A DNA stretch of 64,000 nt, from assembly GCA_965199265.1 (NCBI GenBank), contig CBDAQV010000010.1, forward strand, positions 53,345-117,344. The letters are read 5' to 3'. The position numbers and the translations under genes are program-made. The notes beneath the pieces are model-generated. The model was given only the letters and a program-made list of their open reading frames with translations, ran no database searches and was not told the origin of the DNA. How positions within the stretch are numbered: the stretch's first letter is position 1; the number at the start of each line of letters is the position of its first letter. Origin of the DNA: Alphaproteobacteria bacterium (GTDB lineage Bacteria; Pseudomonadota; Alphaproteobacteria; CALMVH01). This document shows positions 1-5,125 of the stretch, one piece after another.

Positions 1-315
1 GATCTGCTCGATTTCGCCCCGCGTTACCGGTTGATGATACGCGATGATCGATAATACTTCGGTCGACGCGCGCGTAAGCCGGCGGGGAGCTTGCGTCAGC
101 TTGCCAAGCTGCGCCGCCAGATCCGGCGCCGTGCGGAATACCCAATGTTTCTGGCGTTCCACCAGAACGACGCCGCGTGCCGAGTAGATCCGACGCAGTT
201 GCTCCAGCAACGCGGGAACGTCACGGCCCGGCAGGTAACCGGCCAATTCCTTCTCGGCCAAGGGTTCGGCGCTGGCGAAGATCACCGCTTCGAGCAAGCG
301 CAGATCATCATCCAT
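1..315 (-). CDS. scpB: SMC-Scp complex subunit ScpB (runs off the left edge)
   Basis: Manual translation from ATG 315: MDDDLRLLEAVIFASAEPL...FRTAPDLA...EVLSIIAYHQPVTRGEIEQI; overlaps the scpA stop. Confidence 0.92.
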   Translation of the reverse strand, partial: MDDDLRLLEAVIFASAEPLAEKELAGYLPGRDVPALLEQLRRIYSARGVVLVERQKHWVFRTAPDLAAQLGKLTQAPRRLTRASTEVLSIIAYHQPVTRGEIEQI

Positions 316-1105
316 CGCGCTCTCCGAAAACTTCAGGTTGTGGAATGCCCCTTACGTAGAGAGCCGCGAATGGCCTCTCCTGCTTTATCGTCAGAGTTCC
401 CCTTTTTACCAGCTCCAAGCCGGCACCAAACGTCGCTGCCAAGTGAGCGCGGCGATGCAGAGGCGAGGGAACGTCCGCAGGAATGAAACCGGACAGTGCC
501 GACCAGTGCGGCAGGCAAGAGAGGACGCCCGAAAGCCGTTCCAACGCATGCTCGATCGAATCGAGCATAAGCGGCGCGATCTGATAGAGCGAGACCGGTT
601 CGCTCCGAGCGCGCGCCTTCGCGTAGGCTTCCAGAAAATCATGCATCGACAGGTCGACGGACCCGATGAGCTTCGTTGAAAAGCTTTCCCGCGCGCCGCG
701 GGACAAGACCGAACTGCCGAGACGAGGACGCACCATCAACGCATCGCCGGCATCGCGCATCGCTTCCAGCCGGCGCAGCTGGAACGCAAGCGCAGCAGCC
801 AGTTCTAGGGGAGTCTGCTCGGTTTCACCGTCATTATCGGGCGATGCGGGAAGCAGCAGCCGCGATTTGAGGTAGGCGAGCCATGCCGCCATGACTAGGT
901 AGTCGGCTGCGACTTCGAGTTGCAGATGCCGCGCCTGCTCAATGAACGCGATGTACTGCTCCGCAAGCGTGGCGATGGACAGCTGCGTCAGATCGATCTT
1001 CCTGTCTCGCGCGAGTTGCAGCAACAGGTCAAGCGGACCGCCAAACCCGTCCAGGTCGAGGATCAGCTGCCCATCCGGCGCCTCGGCTGGTAAGCTACTC
1101 CCCAT
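308..1105 (-). CDS. scpA: Segregation and condensation protein A
   Basis: LDGFGGPLDLLLQLAR and AADYLVMAAWLAYLKSRLLLP motifs; adjacent to scpB. Confidence 0.95.
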   Translation of the reverse strand: MGSSLPAEAPDGQLILDLDGFGGPLDLLLQLARDRKIDLTQLSIATLAEQYIAFIEQARHLQLEVAADYLVMAAWLAYLKSRLLLPASPDNDGETEQTPLELAAALAFQLRRLEAMRDAGDALMVRPRLGSSVLSRGARESFSTKLIGSVDLSMHDFLEAYAKARARSEPVSLYQIAPLMLDSIEHALERLSGVLSCLPHWSALSGFIPADVPSPLHRRAHLAATFGAGLELVKRGTLTIKQERPFAALYVRGIPQPEVFGERDG

Positions 1106-2231
1106 AGCCGGGAATCAGCTCGCGCAGCCGGGCGCGTTTGGCGAAAGCGACTTCGGGCATTAAATGGCGGGACAACGCGAAAGGCAGCATGGCCGCTTCG
1201 GCCAGGCGCGCGTAGGTTGCCGGTGTGATTCGCGTGATTGCCGGCGCGATCAGCTCCATTTCATCCAGCTTGCCGCTACAATGAAGCGTCAGGTCGTTAC
1301 CCGCCGCCAGAGTGGCTTCGGCTCGTTCGCGAAGCCCTCCGCTCAGCGCATGCATGCCGATATCATCCGCGATCAGTACGCCCGGAAATCCCATGCCGAT
1401 GCGGATAACGTCCTCGATCACGGTGCGCGAAGTGGAAGCAGGCTGCTCCGCGTCTATGTCGGAATATTTGACATGCGCCACCATTGCCCAGGGTAGTCCG
1501 GCGTTTCCTGGATGCGCCAGCTTCCAGAACGGGTGAAAGTCGGTTTTGATCAGTTCGGCTCGGGATGTCGTGACGTTGGGCAGGTCTGCATGGCTGTCCA
1601 CCGGCGCCCGGCCGTGGCCCGGAATGTGCTTGATGACCGGGACCACGCCGCCGATCTGCAGGCCGAAGCATACCTGCGTTGCCAGCTGCGCAACGAGTTC
1701 GGGATCGCTGTCGAAAGCCCTGTCTCCCACGACGCCGTGCGCGTCGGGGAAGTACAAGTCCGCGACGGGGGCACAGTTCACCGTGACCCCCAGCGAAGCC
1801 AATTCGTAGGCGATCAGGCTGGCGTTCAGCATTGCCGCTTCCAGCGCCGGGCTAAGCTCGCCGGCATCGGGACCTGCCTGCAGCGCCAAGCCATGGGCCC
1901 GGTCGGCCCGGAGCATGTCACCGAACACCCGCATCGGTGGAAATTTGGGCCAGTGCGGCGGTTTCAAACGCGCAACGCGCCCCCCTTCCTGGTCTATCAG
2001 GATAGGTGCATCGTCACGCCCGACGCTGTCGCGCAAAGCACGGGTTAGTGCACGCACCTGATCGGGAGTTTCACAGTTGCGCTGGAACAGGATGAAACCG
2101 AGCGGATCGAGTTCGCGGAAGAAGCGCTGCTCGGCGTTTGTCAGCACGGTTCCGGAACAGCCGAGTATGACCGCAAGCGGCAAGGAAGCCGCGCTGGGAT
2201 AGTCAGCGCGAGACTGCGATGCAGGAGACAT
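1095..2231 (-). CDS. nagZ: Beta-N-acetylhexosaminidase (GH3)
   Basis: IDQEGGRVARL and KHIPGHG...DSH motifs; conserved context. Confidence 0.95.
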   Translation of the reverse strand: MSPASQSRADYPSAASLPLAVILGCSGTVLTNAEQRFFRELDPLGFILFQRNCETPDQVRALTRALRDSVGRDDAPILIDQEGGRVARLKPPHWPKFPPMRVFGDMLRADRAHGLALQAGPDAGELSPALEAAMLNASLIAYELASLGVTVNCAPVADLYFPDAHGVVGDRAFDSDPELVAQLATQVCFGLQIGGVVPVIKHIPGHGRAPVDSHADLPNVTTSRAELIKTDFHPFWKLAHPGNAGLPWAMVAHVKYSDIDAEQPASTSRTVIEDVIRIGMGFPGVLIADDIGMHALSGGLRERAEATLAAGNDLTLHCSGKLDEMELIAPAITRITPATYARLAEAAMLPFALSRHLMPEVAFAKRARLRELIPGYGE

Positions 2232-3192
2232 TGGCTGCCTTTAATGTTGCACAGGTTTGCTTGGCGATGTCGGGCCCGAGCGGCCCGGCCTTCAGCCTGA
2301 ACCATATCCCCTTGTCACCAAGGTCTACACGCTGGATCGACGGCGACAGGGGGCTCAGCTGGTCGGCGTGACGCGCTTGCAGCCGTTTCCATTCGCCGTT
2401 CGCGCTCGCCTCGTCCCTGAAGGCACCGAGCTGGATCATGCCGCCGCCAGCGCCTGTGTTGACGGGCTTGGCCTTTTGCGGGATCGCTTTGGAGGCCTGT
2501 TTCGACGGGGAAGGTGCAATCGCCGCCTCAGGATTGCTCCCGTCACGATCCTGCCCGTTCGCTGCCTGGCTTTCCGGTGCCGGCGGAAGCGGGAGCTTGT
2601 TGGCCGGGATCGCTGATGGGTTGTGAGCTGTGACAGGCGCAAGCGCGGAGGGATTGTCGCTCGTCGAGGTTTCGACGTCGCCAGGGGGGGAGTCCGCGTC
2701 CGAGGATGTGCCGGGTACGCGCGCTGCCGGCGCATCAGCATCGAAGGTACTCCTGGCCGCCTCCGCTGCCGGCGGCTGAGGCTTGGGCAGCGGCTGCTCG
2801 GGGGGTTGCAGCAAATGTTCGACCTCGCTGGACGCACGCCGTCCCTTGTGCTGCGTCAACTCATCATAGACAGTAGTGTCCTGGAATGGAATCTCCGTTC
2901 CCCCTGGGTTGTCCGGCTTGACCTTGACCGGACCAGGCTCCGCGGCAATCACCGGCAGCTGCCCCGATGCGCCGATAGGATGGCGCCGATAGGCGATCAT
3001 GACAAAAGCGGTGAACAGGACCAGCGCGCAGCCGACAAGAAAAGTCGGGATCAGCGATCGGCGTCCGCGGCGTGTCGGCATGGGCGAGGACCTCTGTGTC
3101 TCTTCGAAATAAGGTTCGTGCCGTTTCCTGTAAGGGCCAGCGCCAAACGGTGGCTCTTGCCGGTGATCGTCGTCGAACGGATTGCCTGTCAT
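2203..3192 (-). CDS. SPOR-domain membrane protein (FtsN-like)
   Basis: One TM helix, Pro/Ala-rich linker, C-terminal SPOR (IQLGAF...WFRLKAGP...C...C); usual position upstream of nagZ. Confidence 0.85.
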   Translation of the reverse strand: MTGNPFDDDHRQEPPFGAGPYRKRHEPYFEETQRSSPMPTRRGRRSLIPTFLVGCALVLFTAFVMIAYRRHPIGASGQLPVIAAEPGPVKVKPDNPGGTEIPFQDTTVYDELTQHKGRRASSEVEHLLQPPEQPLPKPQPPAAEAARSTFDADAPAARVPGTSSDADSPPGDVETSTSDNPSALAPVTAHNPSAIPANKLPLPPAPESQAANGQDRDGSNPEAAIAPSPSKQASKAIPQKAKPVNTGAGGGMIQLGAFRDEASANGEWKRLQARHADQLSPLSPSIQRVDLGDKGIWFRLKAGPLGPDIAKQTCATLKAANVSCIAVSR

Positions 3193-3935
3193 CCTGGCTC
3201 GTGGGAAAGGACGAGGGCGGTCGCCCTGACAAGCGCCAGACGGGCGCGCGACAGCTCACGGTCCGCAGGGGCGATGAAGCCGAGCATCGAATTGTCTCGC
3301 CGCGATGCCCAAACCGCGCGGAAAGCGGTCGCCACATCCTGCAAGTACTTAGCAATCTGCCGATCTTGGCCGTTGGCAAGCGCATAAGGCCAGCCGGCGA
3401 GAGTTTTCATCAATGCGGCGTCCGGCTGACCGTCGATCCGGGCCAGCTTTGCACCGGCGAGAGCATTGTCGTGCAAATCTTCACCTGACTTGGCGGCATG
3501 CCCGAGGACGGAGCAGCACAGCGCCAGCACGTGCGACAGGTTGAACACCGGATCGGTCGCCGACCAGTCGGTCGCGGCGGCGTGATCGACATGCCCGCAT
3601 ACATCCCGGTCACCCCCGCCATGCAGGATGCCGGCGATGGCGCGATGCCAGACAACCGGTTTCAGGCGCAGGTTGACGAAGCCGTTCTCGGCCGCGTCGG
3701 CGTGCAGCACATCGGGCAGGGCAATGAAGTGACGGGCCAGGGTTTTTGCCAGCGTGGGCGCATCCACCCTGCCGGCGGCGACCAGTGCGGCGTTGGTGGA
3801 CATATCCCCATGCCTTGGGTCGCGTGCCGGCTCGACGCTGAGACGCCCGAAGTCCACTGCGTCGAGGTCGCCGGCGGAAACCATCCGCTCCAGCTCGAAC
3901 CGCATCAGGTGTTCATAGGTCTCGTAAAGGTTCAT
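3189..3935 (-). CDS. ArgRS-derived protein: N-terminal domain fused to the DALR anticodon-binding domain, catalytic domain absent (possibly a pseudogene)
   Basis: VEPARDPRHGDMSTNAALV and GFVNLRL (ArgRS N-domain); DPVF...CCSVL and RARLALVRA (DALR); no HIGH or KMSKS; 248 aa; ATGA overlaps at both ends. Confidence 0.8.
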   Translation of the reverse strand: MNLYETYEHLMRFELERMVSAGDLDAVDFGRLSVEPARDPRHGDMSTNAALVAAGRVDAPTLAKTLARHFIALPDVLHADAAENGFVNLRLKPVVWHRAIAGILHGGGDRDVCGHVDHAAATDWSATDPVFNLSHVLALCCSVLGHAAKSGEDLHDNALAGAKLARIDGQPDAALMKTLAGWPYALANGQDRQIAKYLQDVATAFRAVWASRRDNSMLGFIAPADRELSRARLALVRATALVLSHEPG

Positions 3936-5125
3936 GGGGTCGGGCTGCGCAGGTCGAAAAGGCGGTTGTGTTCGGTCAGGGCATAACGGTCGGTCATGCC
4001 GGCGATGTAGTCGGCGATCAGCCGGGCTTGCTCTGCCTTGTTTCCCGAAGGTGAACGCCAGTCGGGTGGAAGGGTTTCCGGCTCGGCAATGAAAATCTCG
4101 AACAGGTCGCGCACGACCCGCCTCGCCTTGCTGGTCATCCGGTTTACCTGATAATGCCGGTACAGGTGTTCCCACAGGAAGGCGCGCAACTGCTTTTCCG
4201 CCGGTTGGAACCCTTCCGAGAAGGCGACCACGGGCGCACCCGCGTTGCGGATGTCATCCGCGCTTTGCGGGTTCAGGGCCGCAAGCCGTCTGCGGGTCTC
4301 GTCCAGCACATCCAGAACCATATGGTTGATGGTCGAGCGGATCAGCTCGTGGATCAGGCGCGAGCGGTCGAGGACAGGGCCTTTCCGCACGTCGACCGAG
4401 CGCAGCGCGTCGCCGACGATCGGCAATCCGCGGAGCTGGTCGATGGTGAACGCTCCGGCGCGAAGCCCGTCGTCTAGATCGTGATTGTTGTAGGCGATGT
4501 CGTCGGCCAACGCCGCGATTTGCGCTTCGGCCGAGGCATGGCTGGCAAGCTCCAGATCGTACTGGCGGCTGAACGCTTCGGTCGTCAGGCCCAGTTTCTT
4601 GCCGTGAGTGACCGGCACCGCCGGGCCATTGTGTTTGACCAGGCCTTCCAGCGTCTCCCAGGTCAGGTTCAGACCGTCGAAATCGGCATACCGGCACTCG
4701 AGACGGGTGACAATCCGCAAGGCTTGGTCGTTGTGATCGAAGCCGCCATATTCGGCCATGCAGGCCCGCAACGCGTCCTCGCCGGCGTGGCCGAAGCATG
4801 TATGGCCAAGGTCGTGCGCCAAAGCCAGCGCCTCGCCAAGATCCTCGTTCAGTCCCAGCACGCGGCAGATCGAGCGCGCGATCTGAGCCACCTCGATGCT
4901 ATGCGTCAACCGGGTGCGGTAGTAGTCTCCTTCGTGGTAGACGAAGACCTGTGTCTTGTACTGCAGTTTCCGGAAAGCGCCCGAATGGATGATCCGGTCG
5001 CGGTCGCGCTGGAACACAGTGCGAGTCGGAGCCTCGCTCTCGGCGAACTGCCGCCCGCGCGAGCGCGCCGGATCGCAGGCGAACGACGCCTGCTGGGGCG
5101 GGAACGGCTCTGATGCATTCGGCAT
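3932..5125 (-). CDS. dgt: dGTP triphosphohydrolase
   Basis: FQRDRDRIIHS, RTRLTHS, HDLGH, ADDIAY, DYIAGMTD. Confidence 0.95.
   Translation of the reverse strand: MPNASEPFPPQQASFACDPARSRGRQFAESEAPTRTVFQRDRDRIIHSGAFRKLQYKTQVFVYHEGDYYRTRLTHSIEVAQIARSICRVLGLNEDLGEALALAHDLGHTCFGHAGEDALRACMAEYGGFDHNDQALRIVTRLECRYADFDGLNLTWETLEGLVKHNGPAVPVTHGKKLGLTTEAFSRQYDLELASHASAEAQIAALADDIAYNNHDLDDGLRAGAFTIDQLRGLPIVGDALRSVDVRKGPVLDRSRLIHELIRSTINHMVLDVLDETRRRLAALNPQSADDIRNAGAPVVAFSEGFQPAEKQLRAFLWEHLYRHYQVNRMTSKARRVVRDLFEIFIAEPETLPPDWRSPSGNKAEQARLIADYIAGMTDRYALTEHNRLFDLRSPTP

Follow-up and report, generated by a model that had tools for sequence, protein, structure and literature searches.

A native arginyl-tRNA synthetase gene whose catalytic core was lost in frame and which probably persists as a non-catalytic protein in an alphaproteobacterial genus

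What is the product of an arginyl-tRNA synthetase (ArgRS) gene that keeps an open frame and its place in the chromosome while lacking the catalytic domain of the enzyme? The question is raised by a stretch of 64,000 nucleotides, here called the window, from an Alphaproteobacteria bacterium of GTDB lineage CALMVH01 (assembly GCA_965199265.1, contig CBDAQV010000010.1, positions 53,345 to 117,344). At the argS position of the window, between dgt and a gene for a SPOR-domain protein, lies a short open reading frame (ORF) that an earlier inspection of the letters, the sequence-only reading, had described as 'mini-ArgS', a gene in which both tRNA-binding domains are kept and the catalytic domain has been removed in frame. 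In what follows G000 is the genome of the window, G001 is a genome of the same genus, G002 is one of the sister genus, and the product of the ORF is called the mini. Sequence comparisons give good support to the view that the mini is the native KMSK-type argS, still in the ancestral dgt-argS-SPOR-nagZ-scpA slot, with its core lost in frame, and equally good support to purifying selection on this remnant across four species. Rather than a dead gene, the remnant is probably a functional protein that lacks catalysis.

The mini is encoded on the minus strand at 3189..3935, from an ATG at 3935 to a TGA stop at 3189-3191, and its 248 codons contain zero internal stops; the intact frame that had been claimed for it is therefore real. 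Pfam recognises the ArgRS N-terminal domain Arg_tRNA_synt_N (PF03485) at residues 32-91, with 30.1 bits against a cut-off of 21.5, and the anticodon-binding domain DALR_1 (PF05746) at residues 140-244, with 27.2 bits against 22.3, and it returns no match to the class I catalytic domain tRNA-synt_1d (PF00750) at E values up to 1. This is exactly the pattern that the sequence-only reading had told us to expect from a scan with hidden Markov models. In an alignment with 13 full-length alphaproteobacterial ArgRS of 577-590 amino acids, the match begins at residue 1 of the mini and runs to ILHG; it is taken up again immediately ahead of R(K/R)ND..LDFD..EQSKDNPVF, where the DALR domain is entered, and about 330 residues are absent in between. 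The HxGH (HIGH) and KMSK motifs both fall inside the deleted stretch and neither is present, as had been reported, and the strings on which the initial description leaned (VEPARDPRHGDMSTNAA, GFVNLRL, ILHGG and HVDHAAATDWSATDPVF) are all found in the protein; on every point of observation the sequence-only reading holds. The deletion of about 1 kb is in frame and takes the entire Rossmann-fold catalytic core, so the mini cannot charge tRNA; its scores against the ArgRS equivalog models lie far below the cut-offs (36.3 bits against 460 for NF002447 and 14.9 against 261.65 for TIGR00456).

Three parts can be drawn on the protein, all of them on the minus strand. Residues 1-108 (3612..3935) make up the ArgRS N-terminal domain, the D-loop-binding domain Add1; it is delimited by PF03485 and the alignments, and its first 24 residues form helix 1. 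Residues 109-127 (3555..3611) are a linker across the deletion junction, defined by the alignment with the 13 full-length enzymes and placed by it close to the 3585-3620 first proposed. Residues 128-248 (3192..3554) are the DALR anticodon-binding domain, delimited by PF05746 and the alignment. Within the DALR part the change of QYAHAR to SHVLAL and the loss of the last C-terminal residues, both noticed at the outset, stand in the alignment; across the minis of four species the YAHAR position reads H(V/T/A)(L/R)(A/T)(L/V/I).

A deletion of this kind might have arisen in the assembly. That explanation is ruled out: contigs from runs of two studies bridge the junction without difference, covering window positions 2900-3656 in X1, which may be the sample that the window itself came from, and 3551-4300 in X2, and the same junction is found in proteins of 248-249 amino acids from three other species.

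If the mini cannot charge tRNA, a functional ArgRS should be encoded elsewhere in the genome, and this prediction was borne out. The G000 genome (2.47 Mb, 97% complete) contains one match to tRNA-synt_1d, of 291 bits, on contig C11, in an ORF that passes the argS equivalog TIGR00456 with 370 bits against the cut-off of 261.65. Its product carries HAGH and a KPFKTR motif, and it is the sole complete ArgRS of the genome, of the (G/A)D(Y/F)Q / KFKTR type. FGDYQ and KFKTR are described as the motifs of cytosolic-type ArgRS, with F36 and Q40 of FGDYQ in the Escherichia coli enzyme (PMC8975779); the native type has HGDxxTN and KMSK in their place. The two types lie so far apart that the mini and the C11 gene do not match each other at an E value of 0.001 or better. 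Four of the 53 tRNA genes of G000 are for tRNA-Arg.

The C11 gene has a peculiarity of its own: where its DALR domain starts, CNAILAKAG is followed directly by an extra stretch of about 46 residues, inserted in frame (L001:2653-2799). G001 and G002 lack it, and at this site the orthologues P0130 and P0131 carry other insertions. In blastn searches parts of the insertion recur at about a dozen other sites in G000, most strongly on contigs C5, C6, C12 and C1, which suggests a small dispersed repeat whose landing here kept the frame.

How a second ArgRS came to serve this genome is suggested by its nearest relatives. The GTDB order of G000 holds three species genomes only, and all three carry a C11-type gene. 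G001 has dgt, the mini, the SPOR gene and nagZ in the same arrangement as G000, and besides its C11-type gene gives one further tRNA-synt_1d match, a weak one (18.9 bits) in a frame of 506 amino acids. In G002, an assembly that is 85% complete and in 360 contigs, the dgt-argS-SPOR slot is occupied by a native full-length argS of 585 amino acids with KMSKR and with TAGH in place of HxGH (L004:646-2400). The same TAGH variant is found in a full-length native ArgRS of G018 (L019:1501-3243), the sole ArgRS match found there, so TAGH is no sign of inactivation and the variant is presumably active. It is the C11-type copy of G002 (L031, G002:C33:2236-5521, minus strand, about 1181-2905) that is broken: HAGH has become LAFH, the stretch following LDIRF has lost about 15 codons out of frame, and the frame shifts a second time at residue 579/580. 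H(A/V)GH is kept in all six intact C11-type orthologues that were fetched. The G002 assembly is in many pieces, but a two-residue motif change and a deletion of about 15 codons are atypical of sequencing error. G002 has thus kept its native argS with the C11-type copy broken, and its loss is the reciprocal of that in G000. The series is most simply read as descent from an ancestor that had both argS types, with reciprocal loss in two genera: the second type would have displaced the native one in the genus of G000, where an in-frame deletion of about 1 kb would have cut the catalytic core from the native gene, and the sister genus would have resolved the redundancy the other way round.

Phylogenetic relationships are in keeping with this descent. 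The closest relative of the minis is the native ArgRS of G002, at 41% identity, and a clade of the minis with that enzyme is not rejected in a 33-row tree (p-AU 0.224). In a 17-row tree the minis form one clade (support 100/100) that adjoins the G002 enzyme on a long stem (0.81 + 0.54), a shape that accords with rapid change once the core was lost and a slower pace thereafter. No genome with a mini beside an intact native argS was found among the genomes searched. One candidate for another shortened gene, a frame of 299 amino acids over the DALR part in G186, was dropped when it turned out to be a full-length argS broken by masked bases.

Has the remnant been kept for what it encodes? The four minis are colinear, have 248-249 amino acids and the same junction, and are about 51% identical, with 96 of 249 columns invariant and one 1-residue indel in each protein. 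Searches of genome contigs and metagenome contigs for the loci of the other minis confirmed none, so the estimates of dN/dS (omega) rest on one species pair, G000 and G001. For that pair dN is 0.429, dS 1.417 and omega 0.30, a rough value because dS is near saturation (1.0-1.9). A single gap column interrupts the 248 codons, and at the three codon positions identity stands at 0.64/0.71/0.44. Among the regions, helix 1 has an omega of 0.09, Add1 of 0.23, DALR of 0.30 and the linker of 0.75; in helix 1 the low value goes with a dS of 1.04, so the constraint is on the protein and not on the DNA. Omega values of 0.10-0.22 were obtained for ten further genes compared between these two species, namely the C11 ArgRS and nine neighbours of the mini; the working ArgRS is 70% identical between the two species with an omega of 0.22, and surE, a real enzyme gene nearby, has a dN of 0.429, equal to that of the mini. 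In a neutral simulation at the observed nucleotide difference of 40.6%, 0.6% of 20,000 ORFs remained free of stops and the mean number of stops was 4.9. The sequence-only reading had proposed same-architecture orthologues and dN/dS as a check, and both came out in favour of a constrained gene: the junction is shared by four minis and omega is not near 1.

The sequence-only reading had also left two possibilities side by side, a repurposed non-catalytic protein and a relic kept for translational coupling. Taken by itself the latter supposes a functionless ORF that has persisted through in-frame luck and through the coupling of its translation to that of SPOR-nagZ-scpAB. Several features of the locus are what such a relic would show: ATGA overlaps are conserved at both ends, no promoter-like or terminator-like site was found in the interval from dgt to the SPOR gene, 44 of 74 ArgRS-conserved sites are relaxed and the enzyme motifs lost, the stem branch is long and the rate above that of the working ArgRS, and long ORFs occur by chance in GC-rich genomes. 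Coupling, however, needs an open frame and not a particular sequence, yet omega is well below 1, lowest of all in helix 1, gaps are confined to one column, and third codon positions are the least conserved. Few of the neutral simulations stay open, and in G002 the redundant gene gained two frameshifts at similar divergence.

A further argument comes from lineages that do without the remnant. Among genomes sampled from 38 other families of the class, five (G006, G010, G015, G025 and G038) give a strong C11-type match, and these five fall among the nine without a match to the mini. The dgt locus was examined in two of the five, G015 and G038, whose only ArgRS is of the KFKTR type. Both have preserved the erpA-xthA / dgt / SPOR / nagZ neighbourhood; a gap of about 130-165 bases separates dgt from the SPOR gene that comes next, and no argS remnant was found in that gap in either genome (L039 and L040, respectively). 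The native argS has been cleanly removed there and the operons work with nothing in its place, which argues against retention of the remnant for coupling alone. Of the two possibilities it is thus the repurposed protein that gained, through its omega of 0.30 and a junction shared by four species, and the relic that lost ground; we consider the relic unlikely. G010 differs from these genomes in having a divergent argS-like frame of 574 amino acids directly after dgt (G010:C5:42316-43977) and, it seems, a second argS-like gene (G010:C9:15879-16919) that is 35% identical to the C11 type, and it may be another lineage that holds both ArgRS types.

If the mini is a working protein, the residues that it has kept should say something about its work. 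Of 74 retained positions at which conservation among the 13 ArgRS is at least 85%, 22 are kept, eight have switched to new residues fixed among the minis (L70F, P84N, V121A, E123D, N128D, Y135H, H206R and R219G) and 44 vary among them; in all four, Asn stands in place of the GPGF Pro. The contacts of the E. coli enzyme with A20 of the tRNA are given as F36, Q40, A78, F82 and N84 (PMC8975779). By our own alignment mapping A78, G81 and N84 have their counterparts in A82, G85 and N88 of the minis, which are kept, as is HGDxxTN. Helix 1 is variable in the 13 full-length enzymes and invariant at 19 of its 24 positions in the four minis.

The structural prediction agrees with a retained ArgRS arrangement. 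An AF2 model of the mini from a 17-row alignment has a pLDDT of 88.2 and a pTM of 0.87, with the lowest confidence in the linker (pLDDT 57-74), and VIA-align places 212 of its 248 residues, from both domains and as a single body, on the tRNA-bound E. coli ArgRS 5b63_C (Z 19.9, rmsd, the root-mean-square deviation, 2.8 A); on the Thermus thermophilus ArgRS the Z score is 19.1. The predicted fold would be that of ArgRS with the core taken out and the D-loop-binding N-domain packed against DALR. A confident model needs the full-length homologues in the alignment, so the ArgRS-like arrangement is not independent evidence and speaks for plausibility, not proof. A new arrangement of the domains, considered because Foldseek gave an rmsd of about 23 A over both domains, was dropped when the 2.8 A superposition showed it to be an artefact of alignment. 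The statement that both tRNA-binding domains are kept holds for the folds only, since so many conserved sites vary and the C-terminal tail is gone.

The eight fixed switches, the loss of the anticodon-side motifs and the invariance of helix 1, with its very low omega, in a region where 13 enzymes vary, would also suit a role independent of tRNA, in which the two domains serve as the scaffold for a new protein partner and the N-terminal helix is the interface. The four minis are close kin, however, so invariance confined to the minis is partly to be expected, and the residues aligned with the A20 pocket (N88, A82 and G85, with HGDxxTN) are still in place. We think a scaffold of this sort improbable, and that the mini most likely docks tRNA-Arg, or another RNA, without charging it, as a binding or adaptor protein in the manner of DALRD3 for METTL2. 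C-terminal residues of ArgRS contact the anticodon. With the ArgRS-specific anticodon-side motifs and the C-terminal tail gone, anticodon reading by the mini may be relaxed or altered.

The reading that we prefer as a whole is of a displaced native argS that has become a selected, non-catalytic derivative, probably one that docks tRNA, and a number of observations weigh against it. Only 22 of the 74 ArgRS-conserved sites are kept, and among the 44 that vary are PR59-60, the A20-stacking Phe (replaced by Leu in three of the four minis), YAHAR, EPHR and WNKG. The mini has lost four residues in the EAHEPHR helix, a deletion absent from the list of the sequence-only reading, and the last 10-12 residues of the protein, the GLxxxGVxPxEEMR tail. 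Over the retained part the minis carry a net charge of 0 to -6 and the enzymes one of +1 to -10, so the minis are no more basic than the enzymes. An AF2 model built from the four minis alone reaches a pLDDT of 61.8, with Add1 below 50. For the same species pair, the rate of evolution of the mini is about 2.5 times that of the working ArgRS, when about 1.0 substitutions per site in the 17-row tree are set against an amino-acid difference of 30% in the ArgRS, and the saturation of dS leaves the omega values imprecise. Balancing these points against the shared junction and the signs of selection, we hold the reading of a selected tRNA-docking derivative to be somewhat more likely than not.

Proteins of the same architecture exist outside this genus. 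In a sample of 401 genomes of the class, which includes the unpublished G042 and G240, a match across both domains was found, among the matches listed, in G000 (321 bits) and G001 (318 bits) alone; the next best has 192 bits, the 148 other listed matches are partial and begin at profile position 63 or later, and a further 507 weaker matches fall outside those listed. A profile of the four minis was also searched against 1.84 billion representatives and gave 1553 proteins at an E value of 0.001 or better. Inspection of the best 150 of these 1553 yielded at least eight further metagenomic cluster representatives of 240-287 amino acids that are colinear with the mini across both domains (P0252, P0258, P0259, P0276, P0279, P0303, P0336 and P0352, each with a single-stretch match of 73-122 bits). 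These eight have no catalytic core and are 24-40% identical to the mini, and together with the four minis make 12 Add1-DALR proteins that align over their length; two of the eight clusters comprise several proteins each, encoded on contigs that reach 67 kb. The finding, together with the ESM Atlas lead given below, suggests that the Add1-DALR kind is wider than this genus. Literature searches found nothing on bacterial members of it. The sole name attached among the eight clusters is that of P0400, in the P0336 cluster, which is labelled 'arginyl-tRNA synthetase'. The ESM Atlas has clusters of 252-258 amino acids with the same two Pfam domains in Bacillota and Actinomycetota, an unverified lead only.

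Might a separate and older Add1-DALR family have replaced the native argS at the slot, with no deletion in place? The single colinear stretch in which the eight further representatives match the mini profile would fit such a family, as would the ESM Atlas clusters if that lead holds, and the AU test does not reject one clade that unites the 12 minis (p-AU 0.208). The best tree of the 33-row set, by contrast, needs at least two origins: all minis are united in none of 200 bootstrap trees, and P0276 groups with a full-length ArgRS (support 100/84). Most of the eight are at least as similar to a full-length ArgRS as to the minis of other groups; they retain VQYAHARC as well as a G.x.EE(M/L)R tail, and have linkers of different length and content. 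The mini moreover shares its slot and its 4-base overlaps with the full-length native gene that the sister genus has, and the genomes searched hold no mini next to an intact native argS. Replacement by a separate family is therefore very hard to credit. A more adventurous idea is that these proteins are a recurrent class of bacterial catalytic-null ArgRS, in which the core can be excised at the domain borders once a second ArgRS has made the native gene redundant and Add1-DALR is left as a dedicated binder of tRNA-Arg; we offer it as a tentative suggestion that is rather more apt to fail than to hold.

Among known systems the mini has its closest counterpart in ArgRS itself, of the alphaproteobacterial KMSK type covered by TIGR00456 and NF002447, with which it shares descent, slot and Add1 and DALR domains above the Pfam cut-offs; it differs in having no Rossmann core, HIGH, KMSK, tail or YAHAR/EPHR/WNKG signatures and cannot be the enzyme. 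DALRD3 of vertebrates is related to ArgRS and has a DALR domain but no catalytic core; it targets tRNA-Arg on behalf of the m3C methyltransferase METTL2, and the authors who described it propose that it descends from an ArgRS gene that lost catalysis and kept tRNA binding (PMC7237682). The likeness, compared at the level of DALR alone, is that the mini too has a DALR domain without the synthetase core; the difference is that DALRD3, as described, has a vertebrate-specific N-terminal region in place of Add1, a mass of 55-59 kDa and a known partner and substrates (PMC7237682). In human cells 'catalytic null' splice variants of aminoacyl-tRNA synthetases are reported in which the catalytic part is removed internally and the rest is a new protein (PMC4756856). 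Those arise by alternative splicing from a gene that still makes the enzyme, whereas the mini comes from a genomic deletion in a redundant gene. NrtL (NCBIfam NF045898, 'ArgS-related anticodon-binding protein', 327 positions) is by its name ArgS-derived and non-catalytic; literature searches found no paper on it, the mini reaches 35.4 bits against its cut-off of 340 and only through the Add1 part (residues 16-109 on model positions 15-110), and none of 14 control genomes passes that cut-off.

The genes around the mini all point in the same direction, on the minus strand. Upstream is dgt (3932..5125), for a dGTPase-like HD phosphohydrolase of 397 amino acids (Pfam HD and HD_assoc); downstream are the gene for a SPOR-domain protein of 329 amino acids (2203..3192, Pfam SPOR), a nagZ-like gene for a GH3 hydrolase (1095..2231, Pfam Glyco_hydro_3) and scpA (308..1105, Pfam SMC_ScpA). 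A partial ORF 3' of scpA (window 1-315) resembles scpB, and if that identification is right the gene order dgt-argS-SPOR-nagZ-scpA-scpB is complete. The ATGA overlaps that had been read at both ends of the mini are real, one at 3932..3935 between the dgt stop (end at 3932) and the mini start (3935), matched in G001 and G002, and one at 3189..3192 between the mini stop (3189) and the SPOR-gene start (3192), matched in G001. ORF coordinates in G001 give both 4-base overlaps around its mini, and in G002 the same overlaps flank the full-length argS, with the argS start read at 2400 and a SPOR ORF that starts with GTG. The setting in a cell-division operon, which the sequence-only reading had put forward, is uninformative about new function, since the slot is the ancestral position of argS in the class.

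One practical consequence concerns annotation. The orthologue P0004 is named 'arginyl-tRNA synthetase' by one source, so a genome could be mis-scored as having argS on the strength of a protein that has no catalytic core. The wider meaning lies in the origin of such proteins. Non-catalytic relatives of aminoacyl-tRNA synthetases are known and their birth is rarely visible, and here the steps are legible from three related genomes: two ArgRS types in an ancestor would have been followed by opposite losses, and the losing copy in one genus would have been trimmed to its two tRNA-facing domains and then selected. The locus would amount to a dated natural experiment on a synthetase turning into something else, and it provides a small, tractable protein for asking what the Add1-DALR platform does alone. 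Were the tentative suggestion of a recurrent class to prove true, the mini would be an adaptor or sequestering factor analogous to DALRD3, and the two genera would represent a transition in progress.

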